Source: Cyanobacteria bacterium SIG28
GTDB taxonomy: Bacteria > Cyanobacteriota > Vampirovibrionia > Gastranaerophilales > Gastranaerophilaceae
NCBI GenBank assembly: GCA_015152525.1
Contig: SUTU01000006.1
Span: forward strand, 39,986-103,985
Reading direction: 5' to 3'
DNA: 64,000 bases
The position numbers and the translations under genes were made by a program. The notes under the pieces were generated by a model, which did not search any database, was not told the origin of the DNA, and was given only the letters and a program-made list of their open reading frames with translations. The stretch's first letter is position 1, and every line of letters begins with the position of its first letter. Shown one piece after another: positions 5,698 through 47,190 of the stretch.

Positions 5698-5985
5698 TTA
5701 TCTTGGAAAACGTATCTTAACAGGTTTACCTTCGCTTAAAAAATATCCTTGTTCTTCACACGCAAGATCAAGTTTAGATGCAGGAACAAATGAATCAGCT
5801 TCAGGAGTTCTTTCTAATTTTTTCTGCATAACCTTTTCTTCTCTTAAAATACGAGCTTCTTCCTGAATTCTTTTTGTTGCTTCTTCTTTTTCTTTTATGC
5901 GAGCCCAAGCTTTAGGATGATTGCGTTTTACTTCCGTCAAAGGTGATTTTGTGCTGGATCTTGTTGTAAATTTTACTTTTCCCAT
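5698..5985 (-). CDS. Hypothetical small Lys/Glu-rich protein (95 aa)
   Basis: ORF with an AGGAAAA ribosome-binding-like site upstream. No recognisable motifs; the product is basic and probably helical. Confidence 0.35.
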   Translation of the reverse strand: MGKVKFTTRSSTKSPLTEVKRNHPKAWARIKEKEEATKRIQEEARILREEKVMQKKLERTPEADSFVPASKLDLACEEQGYFLSEGKPVKIRFPR

Positions 5986-6223
5986 AATAAAAATTTTCCT
6001 AATACTACCACTTTATAATACTAAGAAAACCTGTAAAAATATTTTTTGCTAGCTGTTTTTTATATAAAAATAGTTTATGCGCTCTACACATTTGTTTTCA
6101 TCATCTTAGGGGTAAATGGGGGGGGTAAATGTATTCCAGTTGGTTGGTGAGAGTTACAGGCTCTCACGTCATCCTCAGGGGTAAATGTATTTTGGCTGGT
6201 TGGTGTTGACTACCGGCTTATTT

Positions 6224-6341
6224 GTCATCCTCAAAACGTCAGCTTTGGGGATCCAGCCAATGTTAAAATTTGTGGAGATAAAAAACATAACCCAAATAAT
6301 TATTTAACAAGCTGGATCTCCGGACTTCGTCCGAAGATGAC
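6224..6341. repeat. REPIN-like inverted pair of ~33-nt REP-like units around a ~53-bp AT-rich spacer
   Basis: GTCATCCTCAAAACGTCAGCTTTGGGGATCCAGCC ... GCTGGATCTCCGGACTTCGTCCGAAGATGAC. The outer boxes and inner boxes are mutually complementary. Confidence 0.8.
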
Positions 6342-6452
6342 GGCAAGCCGGTAGTCTAATTTTGGAGGGAATGTGTGTTATTCAAATAAAAACTTATCAG
6401 TTTAATACACTTCTCACCCTACACAAATCTCGTGTCCAAATGTAGCTTATCT

Positions 6453-6569
6453 GTCATCCTCAAAGCGAAGCTTTGGGGATCCAGCCAATGTTAAAATTTG
6501 TGGTGATAAAAAACATAACCCAAATAATTATTCAACAAGCTGGATCTCCGGACTTCGTCCGAAGATGAC
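6453..6569. repeat. REPIN-like inverted pair, second tandem copy
   Basis: GTCATCCTCAAAGCGAAGCTTTGGGGATCCAGCC ... GCTGGATCTCCGGACTTCGTCCGAAGATGAC. Confidence 0.8.
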
Positions 6570-7040
6570 GGCAAGCCGGTAGTCTAATTTTGATGGGAAT
6601 GTGTGTTATTCAAATAAAAGCTTGTCAGTTTAATACACTTCTCACCCTACACAAATCTCGTGTCCAAATGTAGCTTATCTGTCATCCTCAAAGCGAAGCT
6701 TTGGGGATCCAGCCAATGTTAAAAAAGCATGAATAAAAACAGATTTTCCACACTACACAATCATCAAATTTAGACTTAAAAAATCATATTAACTTTTGTA
6801 AAACTTTCACTAAAAACTATAAAGTTTTTTGTAAAATGTGCCGTTATATTTCATGAAAATACTATTAAAAAATAACGAGGTATCTGAACAAGTAGGTTAA
6901 AGTTAAATAAGGTAATTTTTCCTCTATATGTATGATTTTTGAAAAATCTCTTAGTCCGTTTAGAGTATTTTTTTATAATTATTATTGAGGTTTTGTTACA
7001 AATTGTTACAATAAATTTGGATATCCCAAGGAAATTTTTC

Positions 7041-7910
7041 ATGAAAAAATTATTACTCACAACAATTATAGCTTTTGCGTTTTCTTGCGTTTCTGCGAGT
7101 GCAGCGATGGTAATGCTTGATTACATCGGTGAAACTCATGTAACGTCTAATAATATTGAACGCACTTTAATTGCTACCAGTGATGACGGAAAGGCATATA
7201 ATATTGCAATACGTCCTCTCGAAGAAGCTATTACGAATAGCGATGGTACAGTGTCTATACCGTTGGAGTATTTGTTTATTAACAACACAAAAGAGGATGT
7301 GTATCTAAAATATAATGAGTATTCGAATATATTCTGGGATACAACTTTGGATGTTGCGCCAAGGAATATGACAGCAAAGATTAAGGATTATGGTGTAGTG
7401 CCTGCCGGAGTTTATAGCATAACTTTGGAAGTTCAGGCGATTGATATTGAAACTCAGGATGTGGCAACAACTTCAAGTTTTTCATTGCAGTTTATAGTGC
7501 CGACATTCCACGAGTTGAACACTTATTCAGCAGCACCAGAAATAAAGGTTTCTGCTAAGGATGCTTTTACTAAGAACGTAAAAATCAAAAACGAAGTTTC
7601 ACCGATGATTTATATCCGTTCAAATACTGATTGGGTATTGTCTGTTGATACAACTGATTTTGCAGAGGCAGAAGGTAAATTTTATATAAAAACTGAATCT
7701 GCATCAGGAAAAGTTACATCAAGACTTTTGGAAAGAGCTTTGATAACACCTGATACACCGGAAATTATTATTGCAAGAGGTATTGCTCCTGCAGAAAACG
7801 AATTTGTTTCTGTTGAGTTTTCTATGGAAAACCCTGACGGTGGCTATATTCCGGCCGGTGATTACAATTACAAGGTGAAATATATTTTAAGAGAAGGTAG
7901 AGATAAATAG
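7041..7910 (+). CDS. Secreted two-domain pilin/adhesin-like protein, first gene of the fibre operon
   Basis: I prefer the ATG at 7041, which gives the signal peptide MKKLLLTTIIAFAFSCVSASA. The track start at 6939 adds a non-signal extension. Both halves end in a PAG-x-Y amphipathic strand (VPAGVYSITLEVQA, IPAGDYNYKVKYIL). Confidence 0.6.
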   Translation: MKKLLLTTIIAFAFSCVSASAAMVMLDYIGETHVTSNNIERTLIATSDDGKAYNIAIRPLEEAITNSDGTVSIPLEYLFINNTKEDVYLKYNEYSNIFWDTTLDVAPRNMTAKIKDYGVVPAGVYSITLEVQAIDIETQDVATTSSFSLQFIVPTFHELNTYSAAPEIKVSAKDAFTKNVKIKNEVSPMIYIRSNTDWVLSVDTTDFAEAEGKFYIKTESASGKVTSRLLERALITPDTPEIIIARGIAPAENEFVSVEFSMENPDGGYIPAGDYNYKVKYILREGRDK

Positions 7911-7931
7911 GTTAAGGAAAAACGAGGTACA

Positions 7932-8753
7932 ATGAAAAAGAAATTACTGGGAATTTTAATAGCAATGGCAATAGGCATACCGACATATGCTTCAGTATCT
8001 GTTGCACCAACAAGATTGGAGATTAATGCAAACAAGATAAGAAACAATTACGCTACCACTGCTATTGAAATTAGAGGGGATAAATCAAAAGCGACCAGAT
8101 ATAGAGTTTATTCCGGTTATTTCAAAATCTCAGATCAGTCTACTGTAGAAATTGTTGATAAAAACTCTGATATTTATGATATGTCTGACAAAATCCGTTA
8201 TGTTCCGTCAGAATTTACTATCCCACCTGGAAAAACTCAAAAACTTCGTGTAAATATTGCTAATATCAAAAATTTACCTGATGGTGAGTCAAGAGCAATT
8301 CTTTATATCGAAGATATTGAAACAAAAGAATACAATGTACCAAATAATTTGGGAATTGGCGCTCAGCTTATCTTAAAGACAAGAGTTGGCGTACCGATTT
8401 ATGTTGACAAAGGTAAATTTGTTAAAAAAGCAGACATTGAATATTTTAAAGTAGTTAAAAATAAAAAAGGTGATTACACAGAAATAAAAATCAATTCAAC
8501 AGGTAACAGCCGAGTTCGATATAACGGTATTGTACAAATAGTAAAAGGTAAAAAACTGATTGATGAATACTCTATTGAAGGTAGAGCTGTTGGTGAAAAT
8601 AACCACTATATAGCAAGAGATGCTATAAAAACTAAAAATCTAAAAGAAGCCGGAGAATACACCTTGAAACTGATATTATACTATCAAGATGAAAACGGCG
8701 TAAGAAAAAATATAAAAAAAGACGCAATATACAATGTAGATGGGAACATTTAA
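7932..8753 (+). CDS. PapD-like periplasmic pilus chaperone candidate
   Basis: Signal peptide, then SVSVAPTRLEI and FTIPPGKTQKLRVNIANIKNLPDGESRAILYIEDIE. This parallels the chaperone N-domain pattern (V.P.R.., PP.f.l.pg..q.lRi...lP.DrES...). A second beta-rich domain follows. Confidence 0.5.
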   Translation: MKKKLLGILIAMAIGIPTYASVSVAPTRLEINANKIRNNYATTAIEIRGDKSKATRYRVYSGYFKISDQSTVEIVDKNSDIYDMSDKIRYVPSEFTIPPGKTQKLRVNIANIKNLPDGESRAILYIEDIETKEYNVPNNLGIGAQLILKTRVGVPIYVDKGKFVKKADIEYFKVVKNKKGDYTEIKINSTGNSRVRYNGIVQIVKGKKLIDEYSIEGRAVGENNHYIARDAIKTKNLKEAGEYTLKLILYYQDENGVRKNIKKDAIYNVDGNI

Positions 8754-8775
8754 GTAAGAAAGGAAGGTACCCCAC

Positions 8776-9465
8776 ATGAAAATCTCTAAAATCACAAAAT
8801 TATTGCCTTTAGCTGTAGCATTTGTTATGGCAACAACAGGCGCTTATGCACCTGCAGGTGCAGCTACGGAGGCTACTAATACCACTCAAACGGCCAATTA
8901 TTCTCTAGACTTGCAACCATTCTTTGATATTGAAACTACATCTTCATCATTATCATCAACCACATCATTTAGTGGAAACTATACCGAATTAACTATGGAT
9001 ACAGCTTTAAATGCTACTTTCCAAGTAATTGGTAACCAAGTATCTCAATCTGTAGCATTATCTGCAACTTGTCCTGTATTTGATAGTGAAGATCAAAATG
9101 CTACAGGTGGTGCTTTGTACAATGTAGCTGAAGGTAATAATGCAGGTTTGAGAATTATTTTTGCTAACAGTACAAATCGACCAAGTGATTTAACCACAAT
9201 GAAAACAACTCATGCAACAGCATCAAGCCCTAATGCAATTGCATTTACATTGACACCAACTTATACTCATGAAGAAGCATCGTCTAATGGTTTCTTAAAT
9301 ACTCCTGCACTATCTGCTGATAAAATTGTTTACGAACTTCCAAACGGAAAACACACATTCCAATACGTAATTGGAACAACACCTATAGATAGTTCATTCT
9401 CTACACTTGATACTAACGGAACTTATACAGCAACATTAACATTGGCACAATATACTGCTCCTTAG
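8776..9465 (+). CDS. Secreted pilin-like subunit (Thr/Ser/Asn-rich)
   Basis: Signal peptide ...TTGAYAPAGA. C-terminal strand GTYTATLTLAQYTAP resembles the terminal G-x-Y-x-a-t-l strand of SCPU/Csu-type and other chaperone-usher pilins. Confidence 0.5.
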   Translation: MKISKITKLLPLAVAFVMATTGAYAPAGAATEATNTTQTANYSLDLQPFFDIETTSSSLSSTTSFSGNYTELTMDTALNATFQVIGNQVSQSVALSATCPVFDSEDQNATGGALYNVAEGNNAGLRIIFANSTNRPSDLTTMKTTHATASSPNAIAFTLTPTYTHEEASSNGFLNTPALSADKIVYELPNGKHTFQYVIGTTPIDSSFSTLDTNGTYTATLTLAQYTAP

Positions 9466-9478
9466 TTGAGGTAACAAA

Positions 9479-10099
9479 TTGAAAAAGCTTAATTTACTAA
9501 CAATTTTAATATTAGTAACAACTGTACTAACAGGTACAGGAAAAGCTTATGCAGATGCAGTGGCGGAACAAACACTTGGTGTGTTTGTTTCGCCTGCTGT
9601 TGATATAACAAAAACTTCATCTAATGAAACAGGAACAATGACTTTCAGCGGCTCTCATGAAGGTTTAAGTGCGTCTTTTGAAATCCTAAATAACAGTGCA
9701 GGTGAGAATTATGAGTTCCTTGTAGGTGCAAAAATAACAACTCTGGGTGGAGAAGTTTCAGGTTATACAAGTACAGGAGCTTTAATGTTTGGTAATACAT
9801 CAATTTTACCAAGTGGTGAAGCTGCTGAGGATGCCAGAGTAGGCGGTTCAAATAATATGAACGTTATAGCTTACCCTGTAACAATGAAAATTGATGACAG
9901 TTCAATGACGGTGAATTTTGAAGAAGGTAGAGCTTTTGACATTGGTACGGGGTGTTATGTAGTTAACGTTAAAAGCTCTCAAAGAGCAACATTGACTCAA
10001 ACAATTGGTACAAATCCGGTTAGCGGTTCGTATTCAAAAGGTGGCGACCAAGCCGGTACATACAAAGCAACGATATATTTTACATCGTTGAGTAACTAA
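9479..10099 (+). CDS. Secreted pilin-like subunit, distant paralogue of the previous gene
   Basis: TTG start, signal peptide ...TGTGKAYA, and C-terminal strand GTYKATIYFTSLSN. Confidence 0.5.
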   Translation: MKKLNLLTILILVTTVLTGTGKAYADAVAEQTLGVFVSPAVDITKTSSNETGTMTFSGSHEGLSASFEILNNSAGENYEFLVGAKITTLGGEVSGYTSTGALMFGNTSILPSGEAAEDARVGGSNNMNVIAYPVTMKIDDSSMTVNFEEGRAFDIGTGCYVVNVKSSQRATLTQTIGTNPVSGSYSKGGDQAGTYKATIYFTSLSN

Positions 10100-13425: not shown

Positions 13426-13460
13426 AAAAGATTCTATTTAACAAAATGACACATATGTGT

Positions 13461-13491
13461 AGCCGTGAGTTCGAAATCACGGCTTTTTTTT
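13461..13491 (+). terminator. Rho-independent terminator of the fibre operon
   Basis: AGCCGTGA-GTTCGAAA-TCACGGCT followed by T8. Confidence 0.8.
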
Positions 13492-13733
13492 GGGGGTAAA
13501 TGTATTTTATTTGGTTGGTATGAACTACAGGCTGTGCGTGGTGGTAGGGGTAAATTGGGGTAAATGGGGGTAAATGTAGGGACTGGTTGGTGAGAGTTGC
13601 AGGCTCAGCGTGGTGGTAGGGGTAAATGGGGGTAAATGTAGGGATTGGTTGGTGAGAGTTGCAGGCTCAGCGTGGTGGTAGGGGTAAATGGGGGTAAATG
13701 TAGGGATTGGTTGGTATGAACTACAGGCTGTGC
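13492..13733. repeat. G-rich tandem array of ~62-bp units containing GGGGTAAAT(G) decamers
   Basis: Units start at 13547, 13619 and 13681: GGGGTAAATGGGGGTAAATGTAGGGATTGGTTGGTGAGAGTTGCAGGCTCAGCGTGGTGGTA. Flanking partial units carry a TATGAACTACAGGCTGTGC variant. Confidence 0.9.
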
Positions 13734-13847
13734 GTCATCTTCAGCCGAAGGCTGGAGATCCAGCTGTTTAAAGAATTATTAGCGCTGTATTTTTTTCATA
13801 CTTCTTTAACATTGGCTGGATCCCCAAAGCTTCGCTTTGAGGATGAC
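13734..13847. repeat. REPIN-like inverted pair, same family as 6224-6341
   Basis: GTCATCTTCAGCCGAAGGCTGGAGATCCAGC ... GGCTGGATCCCCAAAGCTTCGCTTTGAGGATGAC. Confidence 0.8.
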
Positions 13848-13990
13848 AGATAAGCTACATTTAGACACAAGATTAGCGTAGGGTGGGAAGTGTGTTAAAC
13901 TGACAAGTTTTTATTCAAATTAACGCACATTCCCACCAAATTAAGCTGGTAGTCAACACCAACCAAACCAAATACATTTACCCCCCTCCC
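13848..13990. repeat. Reverse-complement copy of the 6178-6222 and 6368-6452 repeat segments
   Basis: AGATAAGCTACATTTAGACACAAG...CACATTCCC is roughly 85-90% identical by eye to the reverse complement of GGGAATGTGTGTT...TAGCTTATCT. The end, ...CAACACCAACCAAACCAAATACATTTACCCCC, is the reverse complement of the GGGGTAAATGTATTT..GGTTGGTGTTG module. Confidence 0.85.
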
Positions 13991-13991
13991 C

Positions 13992-17318: not shown

Positions 17319-17402
17319 GCCGATGTGATGGAATTGGTAGACGTGCCAGACTCAAAATCTGGTGTAGGCAACTACGTGCCGGTTCGACCCCGGCCATCGG
17401 CA
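17319..17402 (+). tRNA. tRNA-Leu (anticodon CAA), long variable arm, no encoded CCA
   Basis: Manual fold: acceptor GCCGATG/CATCGGC, D-loop GAATTGGTAGAC, anticodon stem CCAGA/TCTGG with loop CTCAAAA, variable arm GTAG-GCAA-CTAC, and T-arm GCCGG-TTCGACC-CCGGC. Confidence 0.9.
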
Positions 17403-17736
17403 AATAAAACAGACACCTTTTGGGTGTCTGTTTTATTTTGAAAATAAGGAATTTATTTTTAATTTGGGGGCGAACCGGCACGGCCGGTTCGAGCGCGAGT
17501 GAGCTGAGGCTGTAGTGTTTTGCAAGAGGGTTTTGCCCTTGTAGCAAAACACGGAATTGCCGTTAAACGCGAACGAGCAAGACACCCCGGCCATCGGCAA
17601 ATAAAACAGACACCTTTTGGGTGTCTGTTTTATTGTGAAAATAAGGAATTTATTTTTTTAATTTGGGGGCGAACCGGCAGTGCCGGTTCGAGCGCGAGTG
17701 AGCTGAGGCTGTAGTGTTTTGCAAGAGGGTTTTGCC
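17387..17736. repeat. 1.8 copies of a 197-bp tandem duplication that begins inside the tRNA-Leu 3' end
   Basis: ACCCCGGCCATCGGCAAATAAAACAGACACC...GTGTTTTGCAAGAGGGTTTTGCC occurs at 17387-17537 and again at 17584-17736, with a few differences. Confidence 0.9.
17405..17439 (+). terminator. Rho-independent terminator after tRNA-Leu
   Basis: AAAACAGACACC-TTTT-GGGTGTCTGTTTT followed by a T-rich tract. Confidence 0.8.
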
Positions 17737-17748
17737 ATATAATTATTA

Positions 17749-20700
17749 TTAACTCAATCTATATAATTTAACTTGATATTTTTTATTATCTGTTATTTTA
17801 TGTTCCTGCGTATCAAAATCTAAATATATATCAGCATCTTCTTCTGTAGTACCTATTATTTTCATTTGATGTTCTTTAAACTCAAAACCTTCAGTATTAA
17901 TTTTGTGCCTGTTAGGACCGGCGTAAATCGGAATATTTGGTTTTCCGACTTCTTTTGTAAGCTTTTTTGCGTATTCAATAATACCATCTCGAATTTGGTC
18001 ATTATATTGATATTTTGCTTTTGTCTCAATATTATCAAGTACTAATGATAATTCGCCATCAATACGTGCAAAATAACACATTGTATTTCCGACAAAATTT
18101 TCACCGTCTTTTATTTCAATAGCCGAGATGAGTTTGTTAAGAATATAATTTGGAGCAGTCCATGCATTGCAACTATCAATAGCTGTACAGCAACCGGAAT
18201 CACCACCAAGATTTAGAGCATGTTGGATATTATTCATATCAGCTTTTTGTATTGTGATAATCATTTCGTTTGAATTTTTAGTGTTTTTTACATTTTTTAT
18301 TTCGTTGTATCTAAGAATAAGTATATGGTTTTTTATTGTATTTTTTGCGGTTTCTATTTTAGGGTTCTTGTGTTGCTCAACCCAGAAAGGGTTATGATTA
18401 ACTACTTCTTTAAAAATTTTTACTATATTACTTAAATCTTCAAATCTAACTAATTCACCATTTTTAGTTAATTCTTTTGTTTTTTTATATCCGATAAACA
18501 GTCCATCATTATCATATTCTGCTTTTTCAATTTCAATAAGATTATAATTTTCTTTTCTTAATGCGGATAAAAGTTTATCAAATTCTTTTTGTGGTATTTT
18601 TGCCCATAATTCATCATTAAAATCTGCTTTGAAATTTTTTAAAATATTAGATTTTGTTTTATTGCTGAAAAGATCTATTTTGACTTCAATTTTAGAATTT
18701 GGATTAAATTTTGTGTATTTATTGTAGTTAATTTTCTCTCTTTTAAATTGTTTTTGAGTTTCTATATTATGCGGCATGAGATTAAATATTTCTAAATTGC
18801 TACATTCTTCATCTAATTGGTAAGAGTTTATGATGTTATTCATTTGAGTAATTAAATTTTTATATGCATTTTTAAAATCATTGTCAGCTTTAAAAAATAA
18901 CGGTATAAATTTAGAATTTGATAAATCAAAGCGTTCAAAAATGGATGGGTGTAAATCGTCTTTATAGTCATATATATCTGATAAAATCCTGTTTAAGAAT
19001 TTATTGCGCTCTTTAATTTCTTCTTTTGTTAAATTTTTTAAAAATGGTTTAAATTTTACAAGATATTTTTTTTCGTTTTCTTCTTGGTTTTTATCATTTT
19101 CATAAATTGTTTTATAAATATAAGCTGTTTTTATAGCTTCTTCCGGATCCTTAATGCTATTTTTTAACATTTGATTTTTTTCAAAAGTGTATTGGTTAAT
19201 TTTTTTTATTAAATAGTTTTTGTCTTTTTCTTCTGCAGCTTTTAATTCTTCTTTTAGCTCTGCAATTGCGCGAACTAAATCTTTATATTTTAGACTTTCA
19301 GTTGGGTTAAGTGCCTCAACTATTTCTTCAGAAAATTCTATGGGTTCAAACATTTCATCATAACTGTCATAATTTCCTAACTCCACAAAAAGCTGATCTA
19401 TTTCTGTGGCACCTTTAAGAAAAACATGTTTTATATTATTTTCACCTAATAATTTAAATAACTCATAAGAAATAGGTACCATACCCAGTATAAGTTCATC
19501 GATATCATCAATTTCAAAATCTTCGGTATCTGCAATGTTGTCTAAATTGTCCATGGCACATTTTCTTAAGTTCAACATCTTTTCAGCAGTTAAAGGATAA
19601 ATTAAAGTGCCAAATTCATCTTTTTTATTACTATAATTTGCGTGAAAACTGTTAACAAGATTTAAAATAAATCTTTTGTTAATATCCGGATTTTCTGCAC
19701 TTAATTTTTTTATTGTGTTTAGATAAGTTTCTTTTTCGGCTTTAGTTGCCAAATTTTCGTAATCAGGATAAAAGTAAGTATTTTTTTGGGTGTCTAAATC
19801 TTCTATACTCCAACCTAGCGGACGTAAATTTTTAAATAATAAAATTTTGTAAGGGTCAATCATTTTACCGGTTCTGCCATACTTAAAATATTCTGATAAA
19901 AATTCATCATCTAAACTTTCTTTAAAAAACTCGGTGTAGTTTTTATGTTGAACTGCTTCATTCATTGTTTGAATTGCATTGCTAAGATAATTTGAGTCCA
20001 TATCAGGTTTTAAGCTTTTGCATTCATTGAAAAGCGGTAACATTTCTTTAAAATATCCCGGAAAAATAGAGCTTTTGGCTCTAAAATTTTTTAATATTTC
20101 AAGAGGGCTTTCCGGTTTAAAATCTATAAATTTATCAAAATGAGAAATATCAGTGTTGTAATAGTAGCTTGTTCGCATTAGTTCCATAGCTACTTTTTTT
20201 CCGTATTGTTCGTATGATTTATCAAAAAATTCTTCAGAACCGTCAGCAAATTTGTGAGTTAGTATATCGCCTGAAAACAATACCAAATCTTTAATTTCTG
20301 TTGTTGAAAAATCAGGGTATTTTTTATATAAATTATTTGTTAAATCGTAATATCTTTTATCAAATTCACCTTCGTATGAATGTTGACTAAATATTTCAAA
20401 ACGTTTTCGGGTAAAAGAAGCTTTATCTCTGTTATCTTCCGGTATTTCTGAGGTCAAGCAACTAACCAGCATCATCATAGTTTCCGGTGTTTTAAGTTTC
20501 ATTGAAAGTATTTTTGAAAAAATGTTTGCTACTGCACTATTATTTAAACCAAGGTCGTATAATTTTATTATTTGATTTGCAATTTCGTTGATTAATTTTT
20601 TTTCACCAAAAAGTTTATATTTTAATTTGTCAATAAAATTTAACTTATCAAAAGTAGGTAAATAAAATTCAGAGGTTAATTTAATTTTATTAAGGTTATT

Positions 20701-20787
20701 TCCCTTAAAATTTGTTGAATTAATATTTGTTTTTGATAGTTTATTTGATTGTATATTATAGTTAATTGGGTTGGAAATTATTTTCAT
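17749..20787 (-). CDS. Large orphan hypothetical protein (1012 aa), Lys/Asn/Glu/Ile-rich, no signal peptide
   Basis: Long uninterrupted ORF in very AT-rich DNA with no motifs I recognise. The C-terminal ~170 aa contain a Cys cluster (GGDSGCCTAIDSCNAW). Confidence 0.6.
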   Translation of the reverse strand: MKIISNPINYNIQSNKLSKTNINSTNFKGNNLNKIKLTSEFYLPTFDKLNFIDKLKYKLFGEKKLINEIANQIIKLYDLGLNNSAVANIFSKILSMKLKTPETMMMLVSCLTSEIPEDNRDKASFTRKRFEIFSQHSYEGEFDKRYYDLTNNLYKKYPDFSTTEIKDLVLFSGDILTHKFADGSEEFFDKSYEQYGKKVAMELMRTSYYYNTDISHFDKFIDFKPESPLEILKNFRAKSSIFPGYFKEMLPLFNECKSLKPDMDSNYLSNAIQTMNEAVQHKNYTEFFKESLDDEFLSEYFKYGRTGKMIDPYKILLFKNLRPLGWSIEDLDTQKNTYFYPDYENLATKAEKETYLNTIKKLSAENPDINKRFILNLVNSFHANYSNKKDEFGTLIYPLTAEKMLNLRKCAMDNLDNIADTEDFEIDDIDELILGMVPISYELFKLLGENNIKHVFLKGATEIDQLFVELGNYDSYDEMFEPIEFSEEIVEALNPTESLKYKDLVRAIAELKEELKAAEEKDKNYLIKKINQYTFEKNQMLKNSIKDPEEAIKTAYIYKTIYENDKNQEENEKKYLVKFKPFLKNLTKEEIKERNKFLNRILSDIYDYKDDLHPSIFERFDLSNSKFIPLFFKADNDFKNAYKNLITQMNNIINSYQLDEECSNLEIFNLMPHNIETQKQFKREKINYNKYTKFNPNSKIEVKIDLFSNKTKSNILKNFKADFNDELWAKIPQKEFDKLLSALRKENYNLIEIEKAEYDNDGLFIGYKKTKELTKNGELVRFEDLSNIVKIFKEVVNHNPFWVEQHKNPKIETAKNTIKNHILILRYNEIKNVKNTKNSNEMIITIQKADMNNIQHALNLGGDSGCCTAIDSCNAWTAPNYILNKLISAIEIKDGENFVGNTMCYFARIDGELSLVLDNIETKAKYQYNDQIRDGIIEYAKKLTKEVGKPNIPIYAGPNRHKINTEGFEFKEHQMKIIGTTEEDADIYLDFDTQEHKITDNKKYQVKLYRLS

Positions 20788-23207: not shown

Positions 23208-24152
23208 ATGGCTATAACGATTAATACAAACATTTCTTCGTTAATTGCACAAAGAAACTTGCACAGTGCAACGTTATCTTTGAATGATGCAATAGAAAGA
23301 ATGACAACCGGTTATAAAATAAATCGTGCCAGTGATAATGCTGCAGGTTATTCAATTGCTAATCAATGGAGAATTCAATTGAGTTCATTGGATGTAGCTG
23401 CAGATAATGCTACAACCGGATCTGATTTATTGACTACAGCAGAAGAAACTTATAGTTTGTTATCAAGCCACATTCAACGTATTAGAGATTTGACAGAACA
23501 AGCTTCTAACGGAACTTATGGTTCTGCATCTTTGAAGGCTATCAAGGCTGAGGTTTTAGCGAGGTTACAAGAAATTAATCGTATCGGTTCAAATGCTGAG
23601 TTTAACGGTATTAAATTAATGGATGGAAAAGGTGTTGGCGCAAATGGTTTAGATTTACAAGTTGGTTTGCACAATGATGTAAATAGCCGAATTAATTTGA
23701 GTCAATCTTTATTTGCTGATGCTTCTATCTCAGGATTATTTTCCACTGCTTTAGAGCAAGTTAAAAAAGCTAACTCCAGTGTAACAGAATTAAACTCAAG
23801 CCTGGAAGATGTAGCTGCTGCTTGTGCCGGTTTAATGAAAAGCGGTTCTGATTATGTTCTTGGTGGCAGTACGGTATTAGCCAGAGATATGTTGGATTAT
23901 TTAGATAGCGCTATTGATGATATTTCAAAAAGAGCTATGGAAATTGGTGCTGCTCAGAATAGACTTGAATCAGCTATTACAGCTATAGATGTTCAATCTG
24001 AAAACTTAACTTCTTCATTATCTACATTAAGAGATGCTGATATTGCGGAAGAATCATCTGCTTATATTCAATCACAAATTCTGCAACAAGCTGCTGCAAC
24101 TTTGTTGGCAACAGCTAACCAAACACCAAGTATTGCATTGAATTTGTTATAG
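23208..24152 (+). CDS. fliC: Flagellin (short, 314 aa)
   Basis: The N-terminus MAITINTNISSLIAQRNL...RMTTGYKINRASDNAAGYSIA and the C-terminus GAAQNRLESAI...LRDADIAEESS...QILQQAA are canonical flagellin D0/D1 segments. Confidence 0.9.
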   Translation: MAITINTNISSLIAQRNLHSATLSLNDAIERMTTGYKINRASDNAAGYSIANQWRIQLSSLDVAADNATTGSDLLTTAEETYSLLSSHIQRIRDLTEQASNGTYGSASLKAIKAEVLARLQEINRIGSNAEFNGIKLMDGKGVGANGLDLQVGLHNDVNSRINLSQSLFADASISGLFSTALEQVKKANSSVTELNSSLEDVAAACAGLMKSGSDYVLGGSTVLARDMLDYLDSAIDDISKRAMEIGAAQNRLESAITAIDVQSENLTSSLSTLRDADIAEESSAYIQSQILQQAAATLLATANQTPSIALNLL

Positions 24153-24235: not shown

Positions 24236-25549
24236 TTAGAAATTAAGAGCATAGGCAAATATTTCGCCTACCTGATGATTATAAAATCTTCCGTCATCTT
24301 TTGTAAAAAGATTTTCCCAGTGAGATTCAGGTTTACCGTTTGTTGCATACGACGGATTTGTCATCATTAAATGATGAGTATTTGTATCGTATCTTAGGGG
24401 AAACAAATCTTCCATTTGCATAAAACTTGGGAGTTTATCAGAAGCATAAGTAAATGCAAAAAAACAGTTTCGAATTCTTGCGATTCTATCTTCATAACTT
24501 CTTCCACCGGTATCGTTGTCGTTAGAGACTTCGACGCCCGGTGCGTAATCTCTGCTGTACTTGAGTTTATCAGACCAATCTTTAGTATAATCAAAACTAT
24601 CCAGATGTATAAATCCGGTACCGGCGTTTAAGCCCATTAGTCTGTATCTTTCAAAATCATCCGAACTTTTTTCTCCAACAAAACTTAAGTTTGTTCTTCC
24701 CGAGCGAGAACGGATTTCGTTTAGGATATATTGCATTTGGTGATATTGCGGTAATGCGCCAACGCCTGTATAGTTGGCACAATCATATCCGCCGATATGT
24801 TTTGCAGAATCTATAAATACAGCGTCAAAACCTGTATTAATAAGTTTTACGGTTTCGTTAATAAAAATTTCTTCGTGTTCTTTGTTCCACCATCTAAAAA
24901 CTTCATCTTCGCTGCTTGAGGTATTTATTCTGATTTGATCTTCGGAAATAACTGTTCTGAAACCTGTTTTTAAACCTCTAAAGTGAGCTAAGTCGTTAAA
25001 AGCTTTGAATTGTTCTTCGCCGGAAAGTTTATCTGAAATAATATTTTCGCTGTAGCCGGCATTGAGTTTTATCCCGTAAATTGAATTTTCTTCATCCGGT
25101 GCTTTGTTATAGCCATCACCATAAATATTAGGGAATATTTGTGAAAGAATTACACAATTTGCCCAACTTTTTGCGGAAGGTGGAATTGCAGGGAGCATTT
25201 TAATAGAACTGATTATGCCGTTTTTGCATTTTTGATTATCCATTTCTGCAATTGCACGGTTGTTAATTTCGATATAATTTGCAAACCTTCCCCAGTTATC
25301 GCCGTAATTTGGGGTTTGTATGTTATCCGGAAAAGTTTTATAAAAAATTCCGCCTTCTGTCAGAGTCATAATTGAGTCTATTGCACGTTTAAGAGTTCTT
25401 TCTAAAAGTTCTGCCGGTAAAATATTTGCTACCCATCTTTTGGAAAAAGCTTCGCCTACTCCTCTGTATGCGTGTAAATCTGTCCATTTGTCATAATGCA
25501 GTGTAGGACTGCCGTTTAGGGTTTCTAGTAAGGAATTAACTGAGTTCAT
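24236..25549 (-). CDS. Hypothetical protein, possibly an alpha-amylase-family (GH13-like) TIM-barrel enzyme
   Basis: GFDAVFIDSAKH resembles GH13 region II (GFRxDxxKH). FVGEKSS may be region III and SNDNDTG may be region IV. Motif-level resemblance only. Confidence 0.35.
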   Translation of the reverse strand: MNSVNSLLETLNGSPTLHYDKWTDLHAYRGVGEAFSKRWVANILPAELLERTLKRAIDSIMTLTEGGIFYKTFPDNIQTPNYGDNWGRFANYIEINNRAIAEMDNQKCKNGIISSIKMLPAIPPSAKSWANCVILSQIFPNIYGDGYNKAPDEENSIYGIKLNAGYSENIISDKLSGEEQFKAFNDLAHFRGLKTGFRTVISEDQIRINTSSSEDEVFRWWNKEHEEIFINETVKLINTGFDAVFIDSAKHIGGYDCANYTGVGALPQYHQMQYILNEIRSRSGRTNLSFVGEKSSDDFERYRLMGLNAGTGFIHLDSFDYTKDWSDKLKYSRDYAPGVEVSNDNDTGGRSYEDRIARIRNCFFAFTYASDKLPSFMQMEDLFPLRYDTNTHHLMMTNPSYATNGKPESHWENLFTKDDGRFYNHQVGEIFAYALNF

Positions 25550-38387: not shown

Positions 38388-40235
38388 ATGGTCTGTTTAA
38401 TTTGTAAAAAAGATACAAAAGTTATTAAAGATGCACTAAAAGCGTTGGGAAAAGATAACTTCGCATTAATCGTTCATGGTAGCAGTTTTCCTGCTTGCGA
38501 CGGTGAAGATACAGGATTTGGTTCATTCAATTCAGAATCAGGTCATAAACTAATTGATTATGCTTCAGAAATCTTCAATGCAATCCAACTTGGACCTGCA
38601 GGTAAAACAAAAGTTTCTGATTCTTCACCATATTGCGGAACAATTTTTTCTGGAAACCCATTGTTTATTGATTTAAAACAATTAACTACTAAAGAATGGG
38701 GCGAAATCCTTTCTATCGAAACTTTCAAAAAAATCGTTAGAGAAAACCCTAAACAAAATTCCGGAAAAACTGCTTATTCATACATCAGTTTAGCTCAAAT
38801 ATCCGCTCTTAAAGAAGCTTGGAACAACTTTAAAGGTTCAAAACTTCTTAAAAAAGAATTTGAAAAATTCAAGAAAGAAAACTCTTTCTGGTTAGAGAAC
38901 GATTCTTTATATGAAGCTCTTTCAATCGAAAACGGTGGTGATTTCTGGTATATTTGGAAAAACGAAACCGATAAAAATCTTCTAAATCCAAAATCAGAAG
39001 ATGAAAAAGCTATATATGAAAAACGTATTTCTGAAATCAAAGAAAAATATGCAGACGATATAGAATTTTATAAATTCTGCCAATTTGTTCTTGAAGTTCA
39101 AAACGAAGCAACAAAGAAATTTGCGCTTAAAAAAGGTATAAAAATGATAGCTGACCGCCAAGTAGCGTTTTCAGACAGAGATGCTTGGGCTTATCAGTCA
39201 TTATTCTTGGACGGTTGGTATTTAGGTTGTCCGCCTGATTATTTCTCTAAAAACGGTCAAGCTTGGGGCTTCCCTGTAATGGATCCTGAAAAAATGTACA
39301 ACGCTGACGGTTCTTTGGGTGAAGGCGGAATCTTAATGAAAAACCTTTACAAAAAAATGTTCAAAGAAAACCCTGGTGGGGTTAGAATTGACCACATTGT
39401 AGGTTTAATCGACCCTTGGGTTTACAAAGTTGGTAAAAAACCTATGTGCGAAGACGGTGCAGGCAGACTTTATTCATCTCCTGAACATCCGGAACTTTCT
39501 AAATACGCAATTGCTCGCAATGAAGATTTAGACTGGACTTTAGAAGGTGATAAAGAAAAAAGAGTTAAAACTTTATCTGATGAACAAATCAAACTATATG
39601 GCAGATTGATTGAAAAAATCGTTATTGCGGCAGCTAAAGAATGTGGCTTAGATAAAAATGCCATTGTTTGCGAAGATTTAGGAACTCTAACAAACCCTGT
39701 TGCGGCTGTTATGGAAAAATACGAATTACAAGGTATGAGATTAACTCAGTTTGTAATCCCTGAAAAACCGGAACACCCTTATCGTTGTAAAAACATCGGT
39801 GAAAATGTTTGGAATATGGTTGGTACACACGATAACAACCCTATCGAAATGTGGGCTGAAAAAATGATTAATACTCATGAAGGTTATTTACATGCTAAAA
39901 ACCTTGTTGAAGATTTATTCTCAGAAGCTGAAAACAAGGATGATATTATTGTTAAACTAACTCAAGACAAAGACTATTTAGTTTTTGTTAAGTTGACAGA
40001 ACTTTTTGCTTCAAAAGCAAGAAACGTCCAAATGTTCTTTACAGACTACTTTAAAATTAAAGAAACTTACAACACACCAGGAACTTCAGGTGATCAAAAC
40101 TGGTCTTTAAGACTTCCTAATAATTTTAAAGATTTGCAACCGATTGATTTGTCAGCTATATTGAAAGCTGCAATCATTGCAAGAGGTAAAGAATTTGCTA
40201 AAAAACATGCAATTTTGATTGAAAAATTAGGTTAA
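38388..40235 (+). CDS. malQ: 4-alpha-glucanotransferase (GH77 amylomaltase)
   Basis: GQAWGFPV, GGVRIDHIVGL, CEDLGT and GTHDN motifs. Confidence 0.85.
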   Translation: MVCLICKKDTKVIKDALKALGKDNFALIVHGSSFPACDGEDTGFGSFNSESGHKLIDYASEIFNAIQLGPAGKTKVSDSSPYCGTIFSGNPLFIDLKQLTTKEWGEILSIETFKKIVRENPKQNSGKTAYSYISLAQISALKEAWNNFKGSKLLKKEFEKFKKENSFWLENDSLYEALSIENGGDFWYIWKNETDKNLLNPKSEDEKAIYEKRISEIKEKYADDIEFYKFCQFVLEVQNEATKKFALKKGIKMIADRQVAFSDRDAWAYQSLFLDGWYLGCPPDYFSKNGQAWGFPVMDPEKMYNADGSLGEGGILMKNLYKKMFKENPGGVRIDHIVGLIDPWVYKVGKKPMCEDGAGRLYSSPEHPELSKYAIARNEDLDWTLEGDKEKRVKTLSDEQIKLYGRLIEKIVIAAAKECGLDKNAIVCEDLGTLTNPVAAVMEKYELQGMRLTQFVIPEKPEHPYRCKNIGENVWNMVGTHDNNPIEMWAEKMINTHEGYLHAKNLVEDLFSEAENKDDIIVKLTQDKDYLVFVKLTELFASKARNVQMFFTDYFKIKETYNTPGTSGDQNWSLRLPNNFKDLQPIDLSAILKAAIIARGKEFAKKHAILIEKLG

Positions 40236-40971: not shown

Positions 40972-41158
40972 AATTTTCTCCTTTTCCTTTTGTGTTTGTA
41001 TAAAAACTACTTAACTAATATTTGTTGTAAATTATAATTCCCCGTTTAATAAAACAAAATTTATTAATGATATATTGATAAAGTTCTTCATTAAAAAATA
41101 ATTGCCTATTTTTTTTGTTTTGTTAAGAAATTGTTACAAATATTGGATACAAAGAATT

Positions 41159-41620
41159 AAAAAAGGTCGGAGATCCAGCTTATTGAAAACCCTCGGAATT
41201 TGTCTTAATTGGCTGGATCCCCAAACCTAACGGTTTGAGGATGACGGGTGAGCCGGTAGCTCTGACCAACCAAAAACCTCGTCATTCTCAGCGCTTGCGC
41301 TGGGAATCCAGCTAATGTTAAAAATAGCTGGTATAGAAAATGTAAACCAAATAATTATTCAATCAGCTGGACCCCCAAACCTAACGGTTTGAGGATGACG
41401 GGTGAGCTTGTAGGCAACACCAACAAACTTGCTCCGCTTGATGAAAAAAGGTCGGAGATCCAGCTTATTGAAAACCCCTGGAATTTGTCTTAATTGGCTG
41501 GATCCCCAAACCTAACGGTTTGAGGATGACGGGTGAGCCGGTAGCTCTGACCAACCAAAAACCTCGTTATTCCCAGCCTTCGGCTGAGAATGACAAGTTT
41601 TTGGGGGTTGGTCAACCTTT
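41159..41620. repeat. Third cluster of the REP/REPIN-like family (divergent subfamily), including a ~124-bp direct repeat with 285-bp period
   Basis: Copies at 41159-41282 and 41444-41567 are nearly identical. A full inverted pair sits between them and a collapsed unit at the end. Confidence 0.9.
41281..41399. repeat. REPIN-like inverted pair, subfamily variant
   Basis: GTCATTCTCAGCGCTTGCGCTGGGAATCCAGC ... AGCTGGACCCCCAAACCTAACGGTTTGAGGATGAC. The spacer shares AATGTTAAAA and AACCAAATAATTATTCAA with the 6.2-kb copies. Confidence 0.8.
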
Positions 41621-41711
41621 TTGCAAAAAATAAAATCCTCTAAACAGTTGATAACAAACAAAAAAAAATATATAATAATGATATTGGGAAACTAGGGGAG
41701 ATTAGGGTCTC

Positions 41712-43772: not shown

Positions 43773-44891
43773 TTATTGAATATAGTTTAATAAACTCATA
43801 TTCATTGATGCTGAACTAACTTGCAAACTTGCTTGATAAGCATATTGAGCGTTCATCCATTGAGTAATGGCTTCCGCATAATCTATATCTTGAGTCTGAG
43901 AAAGATATGCAGTTAAGTTTTCGTTATTTGTTTCAAGAGTTGATGTTGTCATCTCCAAACGGTTTGCAATACCGCCGAATTTAGTTTGTTCTGTTGTAAT
44001 TGTATCCAATGAATTTGAAAATTCATCAAGACTTGCATTCATTTGGTCATAACCTTCTTGAACTTCACCGCCAAGAACCTTTTCAATACCATGGCTCAAC
44101 ATTCTTAAAGCACCTAAAACACCTGAATATTTTTCCTCACCGGTATAAACTTTTTCTAAATCAGTTGGTTTACCTGTATATTCAGAATCATCATCTTCAT
44201 AAGCATAAGTTTTTAAACCTGTTGCTTGATCAACTGTTTCTATAACTCTTCTATCGTTATCATTAGGATCTGTGAAAACTTTTTTGCCGTCATCATTAGT
44301 TTCCTGAACTTTTTCATAAGAACCGAAAACTCTATCACCTGTTGTATTGATAATTTCAAAAACGCCGTCAGATACTTCTGTTTGTCTTATGTAATCTTCA
44401 TTGGCATAAGGAGTTCCGTTGTATGTAATGCTACCATCTTCTTCAATTGTAAACGGAACTGTTTTAGTATTAGCGCCGGAAAAAATGTAGTTATCATTAT
44501 ATTCTGAATTTGCTAAATCAACTATTGTTTTTGCAATTTCATCAATTTCAACTTGTAAGGCTTTTAAAGAAGAATCATTATAAGTTTGGTTATTAGCTTG
44601 AATTGCTTTGTCCCAAGCCTTTGATAAATAACCGGAAGCTAATGAGAGCAAATCATCTAAAGCACTTAACTCTGCAGAAGCTAAACCAACATTTTCTTCA
44701 AAAATTTCAATTTGACCAAGCTGTTTATTTGTATTTAAAATATTTACAGTTGCAATCGGGTCATCAGTTATACTTGTAATTTTGTTTCCTGATGAAAGTT
44801 GTGCTGTTAATTTATTAAAATTATATTGATTCATTTGCATATCTGCTACTAATTGAGCATATCTTGAACTGGAAGTAATTCTATCTACCAT
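43773..44891 (-). CDS. flgL: Flagellar hook-associated protein 3
   Basis: N-terminal RITSSSRY...QLSSGNKITSITDDPIA and a flagellin-like C-terminal helix. Confidence 0.8.
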   Translation of the reverse strand: MVDRITSSSRYAQLVADMQMNQYNFNKLTAQLSSGNKITSITDDPIATVNILNTNKQLGQIEIFEENVGLASAELSALDDLLSLASGYLSKAWDKAIQANNQTYNDSSLKALQVEIDEIAKTIVDLANSEYNDNYIFSGANTKTVPFTIEEDGSITYNGTPYANEDYIRQTEVSDGVFEIINTTGDRVFGSYEKVQETNDDGKKVFTDPNDNDRRVIETVDQATGLKTYAYEDDDSEYTGKPTDLEKVYTGEEKYSGVLGALRMLSHGIEKVLGGEVQEGYDQMNASLDEFSNSLDTITTEQTKFGGIANRLEMTTSTLETNNENLTAYLSQTQDIDYAEAITQWMNAQYAYQASLQVSSASMNMSLLNYIQ

Positions 44892-44894
44892 TTA

Positions 44895-46625
44895 TTAACC
44901 TCCTAAAGCTATTAAAGTATCTAAACAAGTATTACAAGTATTAAACACCTGCGCCGCTGCAGAATATGCAGTTTGATATTTTACCAAATCTACAAGCTCT
45001 TCGTTTAAATCAACGCTATTGCGACTTTTTATCTGATTGTATACTGAATCCACAACGCTTGATTGTGTATCAACAAGTGCTTGACCGTTGCTGCCACCTG
45101 CACCTATTTTTCCTAACAAACCTGTATAACAATCTTCAATTGTCATACCGTTAAGATTTTGCATACCGTCTTTTCCGTCAAATTTATGAGTTCTTGCCTT
45201 TAACATACTTACAACGTTTTGAGAGTTACCGATTGCATTAACATCAAAATTCGGCGGAACATCCAAGTCATTCGGATTGTCAAAGTAAGCACAAGCCAAG
45301 CTCCAATGACCGTTATCTGTTAATAAATTTGAATTAACAGCAATGTTACCGGCTGTAACTTTGTCTTTTAACTCGTAACCGATAATTGTATTATCATCCG
45401 GATTAATAATTGCTTTTGCCTCACCAAAAATAAAATTATCTTCTGTTGTTGCCTTTAATTTTCCGGTTTCGTTCGGATCAATACAGTAAGCACCTTTACG
45501 TGTATTTATACCGTTAAAAATATCAACAAGGGCTTGAGCTATATTATCAAGAGTATCTTTAGCAATACCGACATTTATTCCATCTGCATCTAAATCACCG
45601 GAGTGCAACATACCACCTAAAGAACCACTGGTAATTAACGGATTAGCATCCTGAACAAGAATATCAGTGTCATCCTTAGGATTTACAATACTCAATACAG
45701 CATTTTCTCTCGGTATTGTATCACCGTTTTCATCCGTAATCGGTACACCGTTTTCATCACGAACTACCCAATCATCAGGATAATTAACATAAACATCATC
45801 ATATGTATTTACATATTGTTCAGCAGTATAAAGTCTAAGTTCGCCTTTAACTACAGAACCACTGACCATTTCAACACCGCCAACATATAAATCTACAGAA
45901 CCATTTGGTTTTTCATCAATATTTATATCAACAAATTCTGCAATCTCATTTAATACCATATCACGCTTATCAAGCAAATTATTTGCTTCCAACGAACCGG
46001 TTTGAGTAATTGTAAGAGCTCTGTTAATCTCTGCTAACTCTTCTAATTTGTCATTAAATACTTCATATTGATTATATATTTTTGAATTTTGAAGCGCTTC
46101 AATACTTTCACCATCCCCTAAAGCTTTTGAGCCAAGTTCATCTAATTGAGAACTTTTTGCATTCAAAGTTGCTGTTAAAGTTTTTGCACTTTCAATAAAA
46201 TTAACTCTGGCAGTTGAACTTGCAGGATATTCATTTAAGTTATTAACCGCATCATAAAAAGAAGCCAAAGCATCAGAAATTCCTTTACCTTCCAAATCTT
46301 CAAAAATATTAGCTAAATCACCAATATTACCCAACTCTTCTTCGTATTGTTTTAACAAAGAAAGTTGATCACGATAATAATTATTCAAATAACTATCACT
46401 ATAACGAGTTACACTGGCAATCTTAACACCACCGTTTGCTCGAATTTGTGCTTCAGTATTATTACCAATTGCACCGGCAATATTTCTTGTTGCAAGATTT
46501 ACCTTTTGTTTTGAATAACCTTCTGTATTCATATTAGCAACGTTATGCGAAACTACACTAATTGCAGATTCATTAACGTGTAATGCGTTCGATGTAATAT
46601 TTAAAGCATTGAATAAGCTAACCAT
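44895..46625 (-). CDS. flgK: Flagellar hook-associated protein 1
   Basis: LFNALNITSNAL......ISVVSHNVANMNTEGYSKQ at the N-terminus and VDLNEELVDLVKYQTAYSAAAQV at the C-terminus. Confidence 0.9.
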   Translation of the reverse strand: MVSLFNALNITSNALHVNESAISVVSHNVANMNTEGYSKQKVNLATRNIAGAIGNNTEAQIRANGGVKIASVTRYSDSYLNNYYRDQLSLLKQYEEELGNIGDLANIFEDLEGKGISDALASFYDAVNNLNEYPASSTARVNFIESAKTLTATLNAKSSQLDELGSKALGDGESIEALQNSKIYNQYEVFNDKLEELAEINRALTITQTGSLEANNLLDKRDMVLNEIAEFVDINIDEKPNGSVDLYVGGVEMVSGSVVKGELRLYTAEQYVNTYDDVYVNYPDDWVVRDENGVPITDENGDTIPRENAVLSIVNPKDDTDILVQDANPLITSGSLGGMLHSGDLDADGINVGIAKDTLDNIAQALVDIFNGINTRKGAYCIDPNETGKLKATTEDNFIFGEAKAIINPDDNTIIGYELKDKVTAGNIAVNSNLLTDNGHWSLACAYFDNPNDLDVPPNFDVNAIGNSQNVVSMLKARTHKFDGKDGMQNLNGMTIEDCYTGLLGKIGAGGSNGQALVDTQSSVVDSVYNQIKSRNSVDLNEELVDLVKYQTAYSAAAQVFNTCNTCLDTLIALGG

Positions 46626-46674
46626 ATTTATTTACCTCAACAAAATATTTTGAAACCTTCGGATTAATCTAATC

Positions 46675-47175: not shown

Positions 47176-47190
47176 CTATAAAACCTCTAA

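Follow-up and report, generated by a model that had tools for sequence, protein, structure and literature searches.

The window analyzed here, 64,000 nucleotides of Cyanobacteria bacterium SIG28 (contig SUTU01000006.1, positions 39,986 to 103,985 of the forward strand), contains a family of short hairpin-forming repeat units, several of which are set in inverted pairs, or doublets. We describe these units, their likeness to the CGTC-tagged repetitive extragenic palindromic sequences (REPs), and their relation to a small GIY-YIG nuclease (Ssn) whose gene they bracket in relatives. Every unit in the window is intergenic, a restriction that the initial annotation had proposed as a check. The units occupy three regions: 5698-6938, where the flanking open reading frames (ORFs) are co-directional; 13426-13991, where they are convergent; and 40972-41711, where they are divergent.

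Hairpin units in three intergenic regions

The pattern in which the repeat was initially described, GTCATYYTCA-N10-16-GGRRATCCAGC, has eight exact matches in the window and none in 100 shuffles. A hairpin scan anchored on GTCAT finds 12 full units, and an unfiltered search of the entire window with a covariance model made from 28 distinct units recovers the identical 12 (E-values of 3e-13 to 5e-6, with no further match up to E=1). The repeat is real. Also present are two 5'-truncated units (41165-41179 and 41450-41464) and a half unit (6168-6177). At gathering thresholds, Rfam reports only a tRNA-Leu in the window.

Each unit has an unpaired (C/T)GTC tag, a stem of 10-11 bp, a loop of 3-4 nt, and an unpaired CCAGC tail. 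The stem has the layout AT-YY-T-C ... G-R-RR-AT, set between tag and tail; at its base, ATYYTC pairs with GRRGAT, with a T.G wobble at stem position 5. The six internal stems listed in the initial annotation were all found as written, and its short internal hairpin is correct, but the sequences that it treated as conserved flanks outside the stem pair with each other and belong to the stem. The tag is CGTC in seven of the 12 window units and TGTC in five. The stem starts with AT in all 12, and the CCAG(C) tail is found in 11 (it is missing in the unit at 41566-41595). Across 62 distinct units from 31 sources, A-T is the first pair in 56 and T-A the second pair in 61. GTC and the post-palindrome CCA are invariant columns in a MAFFT alignment of 28 units (A1).

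There are four full doublets, with the tags outside (head-to-head) and AT-rich, mutually related spacers of 53, 53, 50, and 53 nt; the inverted pairing around a spacer of about 50 bp reported earlier is thus present. Two additional doublets have one truncated arm and a spacer of 32 nt.

The segment originally flagged, 6224-6341, is one doublet within a 228-nt tandem repeat of 2.2 copies. Folded as single-stranded DNA (ssDNA), the block at 6199-6360 reaches -36.3 kcal/mol (z = -7.9). The left arm of this doublet (6223-6257, plus strand, 37.8 bits) has a TGTC tag, the stem ATCCTCAAA-ACG.., and a CCAGC tail, and is slightly imperfect. Its spacer (6258-6310, plus strand) is 53 nt long and AT-rich, with ends that resemble the 5' leader and start, and the last codons and stop, of the ssn cassette discussed below. 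The right arm is CGTCATCTTCGGACGAAGTCCGGAGATCCAGC (6311-6342, minus strand). The second doublet lies in the second copy of the tandem repeat and contains TGTCATCCTCAAAGCGAAGCTTTGGGGATCCAGC as its left arm (6452-6485, plus strand, 54.2 bits), a 53-nt spacer (6486-6538, plus strand), and a right arm at 6539-6570 (minus strand). Both right arms fit the published pattern of the Ssn-related motifs (SRMs). A solo unit (6680-6713, plus strand) opens the truncated third tandem copy.

At the second locus, the arms of the third doublet are CGTCATCTTCAGCCGAAGGCTGGAGATCCAGC (13733-13764, plus strand) and a unit identical to the one at 6452 (13815-13848, minus strand); the spacer between them (13765-13814) is 50 nt long and has cassette polarity on the minus strand. 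The third locus begins with the 5'-truncated unit GGTCGGAGATCCAGC (41165-41179, plus strand), which pairs with CGTCATCCTCAAACCGTTAGGTTTGGGGATCCAGC (41212-41246, minus strand) over a 32-nt spacer; an intact pair for comparison is found in L108, a 'Cyanobacteria bacterium SIG28'-type contig. The fourth doublet follows, with CGTCATTCTCAGCGCTTGCGCTGGGAATCCAGC on the left (41280-41312, plus strand), a 53-nt spacer with 79% identity to the spacers of locus 1 (41313-41365, plus strand), and a right arm with a GTCCAGC tail (41366-41400, minus strand). Further on are the second 5'-truncated unit (41450-41464, plus strand), a unit that duplicates the one at 41212 as part of a 285-nt direct repeat (41497-41531, minus strand), and the degenerate unit TGTCATTCTCAGCCGAAGGCTGGGAAT, which has no CCAGC tail (41566-41595, minus strand, 29.5 bits). 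Both 5'-truncated units are preceded by CTTGCTCCGCTTGATGAAAAAA, and L108 has the identical truncation junction just past the ssn stop codon. The shared junction points to a recurrent variant and not to random decay.

Accessory modules adjoin the units, always on the tag side. At locus 1 (6108-6222, plus strand), they form a mosaic of GGGGTAAATG runs and TTGGTTGGTG..CTACMGGCT 5' of the tag, and the half unit GTCATCCTCA at 6168-6177 is fused to GGGGTAAATG. The sequence TTGGTTGGTG..CTAC(A/C)GGCT is followed by GTCAT 3-4 nt on. The modules of locus 2 (13493-13732, plus strand) include a 62-nt tandem repeat (2.6 copies at 13557-13715) and lead into the tag of the next unit. On the other side of the doublet, 13849-13985 (minus strand) is an inverted copy of the locus 1 modules, 91-92% complementary to 6380-6738. 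The same modules adjoin the ssn locus of a relative (L108 1250-1410). Since they sit where Ssn is expected to cut, the accessory modules may be part of the element.

The structure of the hairpin is conserved by compensatory change, as was claimed from the copies in the window. In a flank-anchored alignment, for which units were defined by two anchors alone and no structure was demanded, 222 of 253 variable-stem cells are paired (the maximum in 1000 shuffles is 169). Pairing in the MAFFT alignment A1 extends to 96.6% of cells, with double changes in six of 11 pairs (55 cells); none of 500 shuffles reaches the observed values, and sliding the 3' partner columns gives at most 51% pairing. A model-based alignment of the 62 distinct units has 97.4% of cells paired, double changes in seven of 11 pairs, and 137 compensatory cells. 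This third alignment leans towards structure, and it agrees with the two independent ones.

The T.G at stem position 5 is found in 62 of 62 distinct units. It leaves the stem of the tag strand unbroken and places a C.A mismatch in the complementary strand, and for four of the five units that were folded, the complement loses 1-2 kcal/mol of hairpin stability. This strand asymmetry fits recognition of one strand only.

Spread of the units and the gene that they bracket in relatives

The sequencing runs that hold the window are gut or faecal metagenomes, and in these the unit words occur at about five times the depth of the flanks. Units identical to those of the window join at least six flanks that are absent from it, breaking exactly at GTCAT, after GATGAC, or after CCAGC. 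One related metagenome-assembled genome (MAG), CAZHEI, has at least ten loci on nine contigs. The units are thus a dispersed family, as the initial annotation had supposed, and not confined to the three loci of the window. We also scanned contigs of one genome per species and used only hairpin-forming matches; about half of the listed matches are chance, hairpin-less occurrences in high-GC genomes. Among the matches listed, hairpin-forming copies are found in MAGs labelled Vampirovibrio, Gastranaerophilaceae, and 'Cyanobacteria bacterium SIG31', in low-GC Gamma- and Alphaproteobacteria MAGs, and in two MAGs labelled Bacilli and Lactobacillales. The covariance model has 80 matches over 31 sources and several phyla. 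The window shares 74-78% identical syntenic genes with the Melainabacteria MAGs of this set. The commonest unit of the window had no match in two metagenome-contig scans; the second, with a degenerate pattern, missed the JGI contig behind L108, which carries that pattern, and is uninformative on abundance.

The contigs from the MAGs labelled Bacilli (L009) and Lactobacillales (L049) are short and contain Melainabacteria-type units, and their doublet spacers end in a remnant of the ssn stop codon. They may be mis-binned contigs instead of cases of cross-phylum spread.

In relatives, units bracket a gene for a GIY-YIG protein. At one syntenic locus of gut Melainabacteria MAGs (L034, L060, and L085), a gene for a 97-aa protein lies exactly within a doublet, in the order unit, about 25 nt, ATG ... 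stop codon, with the stop abutting the GCTGGAT of the inverted unit. A paralog with 72% identity occurs at another locus of the MAG that contains L060 (L081) and has the same 3' junction; this locus is cut, and the comparison covers its 3' side only. 'Clostridium sp. CAG:768'-type genomes (L104) also have the gene between two units, here of another subfamily (GTCATTGCGAGCG..GCAATCCAGC), with the stop abutting GCTGG. In 'Cyanobacteria bacterium SIG28'-type contigs (L106-L115), the gene lies within a doublet and is preceded by a unit that shares the apical hairpin of window locus 3; this region carries the accessory modules of the window too.

The encoded protein has 94-97 aa and a single domain. 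The Pfam family GIY-YIG (PF01541) spans residues 4-77, and Y8, Y19, and E66 are spaced as are the mutated catalytic residues Y6, Y17, and E64 of the N. meningitidis enzyme. There are at least 7978 homologues of the gene at E<=1e-5, and no relatives of the protein were found in PDB by sequence.

A 362-nt contig identical to L108:1454-1815, which includes the whole gene, was found in three runs that hold the window (X1, X2, and X4). Its depth in these runs is 10.4, 9.0, and 3.6, compared to a single-copy depth of the window of 10.7, 9.2, and 5.4; the unit words at the L108 locus have a depth of 150-670. Because an identical ssn contig occurs in the same metagenomes at about equal depth, the organism of the window likely encodes the nuclease, short of proof.

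In two Melainabacteria lineages (L034 6920-7246, L060, and L085; L096-L105 at about 850-1320), the ssn cassette has a gene for a 108-aa XRE-type helix-turn-helix protein immediately upstream. The two versions of the protein are 38-41% identical, and neither the XRE-type gene nor ssn is in the window. The genes downstream differ: one lineage has an ABC transporter, and the other has a GH77 gene orthologous to window 38388-40235. The XRE-type gene may be a regulator or a travelling partner. Related MAGs also contain further unit subfamilies (L104 1430-1830; L081 250-290; L020 and L028) with the same tag and tail and other stems, such as GTCATTGCGAGCGATGGCGAAGCAATCCAGC and GTCATTCTGAGCGAATGCGAAGAATCCAG. 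Each subfamily stands beside an ssn paralog of its own, a sign that one genome may contain several pairs of nuclease and motif.

The spacers of the window doublets resemble the two ends of this cassette. The first 14 nt of the spacers have 10-11 matches with the leader of the L108 cassette (for example, window CAATGTTAAAAT.. and L108 TTATGTTAAAAT..), and the last 16 nt have 10-11 matches with its final codons and stop (..ATTATTCAACAA in the window and ..ATCATTCAATAA in L108, each joined to GCTGG). Measured against all window positions, the background probability per end is 5e-4 to 8e-3. These values come from an end-anchored, ungapped comparison; a global alignment of spacer and cassette with free gap extension (z~2) was too permissive. 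The inner flank of many units across loci reads ..ATTATTCAATAG/TAA or ..TTCAATAG directly before GCTGG, which are the last codons of the gene. Cassette polarity is retained in two of the four doublets, with a 'TCA' stem type in the upstream arm and a 'TCG' type in the downstream arm, as around intact genes. Since spacer ends are shared with the cassette, we read the doublets as gene-less derivatives: they are likely copies of a 'unit - ssn gene - unit' cassette after internal deletion of the gene. We did not find this origin of gene-less doublets stated in PMC11893778. The window and the fetched loci have only two syntenic stretches in common, gene order differs upstream of the GH77 gene, and an empty-site test failed.

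Relation to CGTC-tagged REPs and to other classes

CGTC-tagged REPs have a CGTC tag (TGTC and CCTC are tolerated), a stem of 8-9 bp that opens with A-T and T-A, a loop of 4-5 nt, and a short unpaired CCA tail. They are intergenic and mostly form head-to-head dimers, often heterodimers, with conserved spacers of 20-100 bp; no transposase has been reported for them, and they never flank genes of REP-associated tyrosine transposases (RAYTs) (PMC3733652). CGTC-1 was equated with Neisseria dRS3, and the superfamily takes in RPE-4 and RPE-6 of Rickettsia; in 2013 such repeats were listed for Proteobacteria, Chlorobi, Bacteroidetes, Spirochaetes, and Thermotogae only (Di Nocera, De Gregorio & Rocco 2013, BMC Genomics 14:522; PMC3733652).

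dRS3 was redefined as NTS, CGTCATTCCCGCGMAVGCGGGAATCYRG, which is the site of Ssn (Chenal et al. 2025, Nat Commun 16:2388; PMC11893778). The same paper describes NTS-like SRMs that, across phyla, flank the genes of Ssn proteins (cd10448, 94 aa), which are small and have GIY-YIG as their single domain. Ssn binds the hairpin solely as ssDNA and on one strand only, cuts a few nucleotides upstream, and does not bind RNA. By mutagenesis, cutting is sensitive to the three bases that precede the palindrome, and binding above all to the C that follows it; changes in the loop are tolerated, and the stem may be lengthened on its loop side. The sole role tested is in N. meningitidis, where Ssn cuts incoming ssDNA that bears the motif and so lowers its recombination, and transformation by such DNA is reduced; the NTS-ssnA-NTS layout was likened to an insertion sequence (PMC11893778).

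The units of the window share with CGTC-tagged REPs the (C/T)GTC tag, the A-T/T-A stem start, the CCA tail, head-to-head dimers, heterodimers, intergenic sites, and the lack of a transposase alongside. Their spacers of 50-53 nt (32 nt with a truncated arm) are inside the 20-100 bp range, and they cluster in mosaics as in Neisseria. With NTS they share the core layout (the closest form is NTSvar, CGTCATACTCGGG-N5-CCCGAGTATC), directional flanks, and a wide, patchy distribution over phyla, and in relatives they bracket a gene for a single-domain GIY-YIG protein of 94-97 aa, as in NTS-ssnA-NTS. The conservation seen in the window, with GTC, the basal stem, and the next C fixed and the apical stem and loop variable yet paired, is as Ssn mutagenesis predicts. 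Another likeness is to the neisserial intergenic mosaic elements (NIMEs), in which units alternate with short repeats of other kinds and with tandem duplications over long intergenic stretches, as at 6.1-6.7, 13.5-14.0, and 41.1-41.6 kb of the window; however, the modules beside the window units (GGGGTAAATG runs and TTGGTTGGTG..CTACMGGCT) have no sequence relation to the RS elements of Neisseria.

We consider it quite probable that the units form a subfamily of CGTC-tagged REPs (NTS/SRM) that is specific to this lineage and has long stems and Ssn-type hairpin recognition, and that their doublets are cassettes that have lost the gene. Hairpins of the SRM class have been described before, and the association of GIY-YIG genes with hairpins was published in 2025 (PMC11893778) and is not new; what we describe is a long-stem subfamily in a gut melainabacterium, in the form of gene-less doublets and solo units. 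Compared to NTS/SRM, these units have a longer and variable apical stem, all of the window doublets are gene-less, and there is the T.G wobble, invariant at position 5. The host, a melainabacterium, is outside the phyla listed in 2013; the words Cyanobacteria and Melainabacteria are absent from the main text of PMC11893778, and a full-text literature search with unit sequences returned primer coincidences only.

Several points weigh against this classification. There is no ssn gene within the 64-kb window, and its probable presence in the same genome is read from matching depth in shared metagenomes. The window stems have 10-11 bp and not 8-9, with loops of 3-4 nt and not 4-5. The published SRM pattern, HGTCWYN(0-2)YYVSBRHN(0-5)WNVSBRGN(0-2)RNCYNB, fits two of the 12 window units and five of the 62 distinct units, and it matches none of the units that flank GIY-YIG genes in Melainabacteria. 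The other units fail only because their stems exceed the pattern in length and in A/T content. As most units are missed, we assign membership by architecture instead of by the authors' search rule. The enzymology of Ssn comes from the characterized Neisseria and Wolbachia systems and is carried over to the present lineage by analogy. The matches between spacers and cassette ends are short, AT-rich, and moderately significant only. Compensatory change in palindromes can come without selection, by templated correction inside the hairpin, a caveat that touches the covariation argument and not the classification. Finally, the U.G wobble and the covariation suit an RNA hairpin equally well.

This last point leads to a reading at the level of RNA, in which the hairpins serve as stabilizers of mRNA 3' ends, processing sites, or attenuators and the covariation comes from RNA folding. 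Such roles were proposed in the REP literature (PMC3733652), the invariant U.G wobble is legal in RNA, and the units are intergenic, with one locus between convergent genes. We regard this reading as improbable. One arm of every doublet is necessarily in the C.A-mismatch orientation, the loci are in co-directional, convergent, and divergent regions alike, and no T-run follows the stems. RNA stability leaves the conserved unpaired GTC and C flanks unexplained, yet these match the determinants of Ssn, which does not bind RNA (PMC11893778). Of the DNA or RNA structure on which the initial annotation had placed selection, the compensatory pairing stands and ssDNA is the better supported level. No RNA runs were found among the sequencing runs that hold the region. 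Intrinsic terminators were also considered and are ruled out, as there is no T-run behind the stems and the loci are in all three intergenic contexts.

Alternatively, the doublet could be a classical miniature inverted-repeat transposable element (MITE) that has hairpin-bearing terminal inverted repeats and is moved by a DDE transposase. In keeping with this, the doublets end in inverted repeats of about 33 nt and have a short, AT-rich core, and they do resemble deletion derivatives of a longer gene-carrying element. However, the borders of the doublets have no target-site duplications and instead show inverted accessory modules, which are not direct repeats. Solo units are common in related loci, and the window itself has a solo unit and a half unit. 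There is no DDE transposase in the window or recurring beside the units, and full-length copies hold the 97-aa nuclease and no transposase. A MITE is thus very unlikely.

REPINs are GTAG-tagged REPs mobilized by RAYTs; REPINs and RAYTs were reportedly described by Bertels and Rainey in 2011 and by Nunvar et al. in 2010. The initial annotation placed the units in this class, in which the doublets would be non-autonomous and moved in trans by an IS200/IS605-like RAYT encoded elsewhere. The units are indeed palindromic, intergenic, dispersed, and structure-keeping, and they form inverted, spaced doublets. The logic is analogous to that of Ssn: inverted hairpin pairs are recognized as ssDNA by a small nuclease-type protein whose gene they bracket. 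However, all units have (C/T)GTC (CGTC or TGTC) as their tag and not GTAG, and the gene that they bracket encodes a GIY-YIG nuclease, whose fold and chemistry differ from those of an HUH/Y1 transposase; there is no sequence relationship. The earlier statement that the window has no RAYT holds: Pfam scans of 48 window ORFs of at least 100 aa found no Y1 transposase and no transposase domain of any kind. The search for a RAYT flanked by units that was proposed alongside it gave none in the window or in the fetched loci (about 30), and ORF clustering over about 30 unit-bearing loci gave no recurrent transposase. CGTC REPs are in any case reported never to flank RAYT genes (PMC3733652). Assignment to REPINs is highly improbable on these grounds.

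Local duplication or chance palindromes without family-level meaning are excluded: the 228-nt tandem repeat of locus 1 and the 116-131-nt inverted copies shared by loci 1 and 2 do imply that some window copies are segmental duplicates, but chance gives no copies (0 in 100 shuffles), the apical stems differ between loci, and there are copies with other flanks in the same metagenomes besides the 80 model matches over 31 sources and several phyla.

A proposed mechanism and what it would mean

By analogy with Neisseria and Wolbachia, we propose that a unit folds as a DNA hairpin when its tag strand is single-stranded, and that Ssn, as a small GIY-YIG nuclease of one domain, would recognize the hairpin in just one of the two strands and cleave that strand, while single, some nucleotides upstream of its tag. 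Sequence-specific contacts would fall on the stem base and on both unpaired flanks, which would explain the conservation of these parts; the upper stem and the loop would drift by compensatory changes because pairing alone is needed there. Cassette copies would have lost their gene by internal deletion and so most likely gave rise to the head-to-head doublets, which are clustered with other modules into NIME-like mosaic blocks. Selfish spread of the cassette and its gene-less derivatives, in the manner of an insertion sequence, is equally compatible with the data, beside cutting of incoming ssDNA. It is possible, if rather doubtful, that the gene-less doublets still multiply as deleted copies of a mobile 'unit-ssn-unit' cassette, by means of Ssn supplied in trans.

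The window has other features that we note in passing. At 17387-17736 there is a tandem duplication of about 198 nt. It takes in the end of tRNA-Leu(CAA) on the 3' side, a hairpin that resembles a terminator, and a GC-rich segment of 82 nt; its copies are 98-99% identical and may be the scar of an integration or a duplication of the simple kind. Between flagellar genes at 47817-47948 there is an inverted repeat of 42 nt made of GTGAGTAAGG-type words, with arms that are 83% complementary and separated by 48 nt; a related word occurs at 62157-62188, and this repeat is unrelated to the units. The window encodes a large flagellar cluster (flgK, flgN, flgH, flgI, flgA, rod genes, fliD, and flagellins) at 43773-54812 and 23208-24152, and the genome to which it belongs is most similar to gut Melainabacteria MAGs. 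Several ORFs in 6939-10099, 17749-20787, 24236-25549, and 54936-57005 have no Pfam match, including two large ones (1012 and 689 aa). The first of these intervals is a four-gene run directly downstream of repeat locus 1, in which no gene has a Pfam match. The protein of one window ORF, looked up by exact identity, gave no record.

For genome annotation, the repeats account for long mosaic intergenic regions and for breaks in short-read assemblies. Each new pair of unit and enzyme is also a candidate site-specific ssDNA nuclease for laboratory use. The published search rule under-detects relatives with long stems, and the Ssn/SRM system is probably more widespread than reported.

Under the classification proposed here, an abundant family of repeats in gut Melainabacteria belongs to a class that had no identified partner protein until 2025. 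The modestly new lead is that the doublets appear to be deletion derivatives of a nuclease cassette. The gene-end remnants in the spacers are a testable hint that hairpin doublets arise from gene-carrying cassettes, and such an origin bears on how CGTC-type REPs spread. If the gene-less doublets do multiply by Ssn supplied in trans, the CGTC REPs would gain the dedicated mobilizing enzyme that they were said to lack in 2013. Ssn would then represent a novel type of mobility nuclease, guided by hairpins and acting on single strands, with the T.G wobble marking the strand that is processed.

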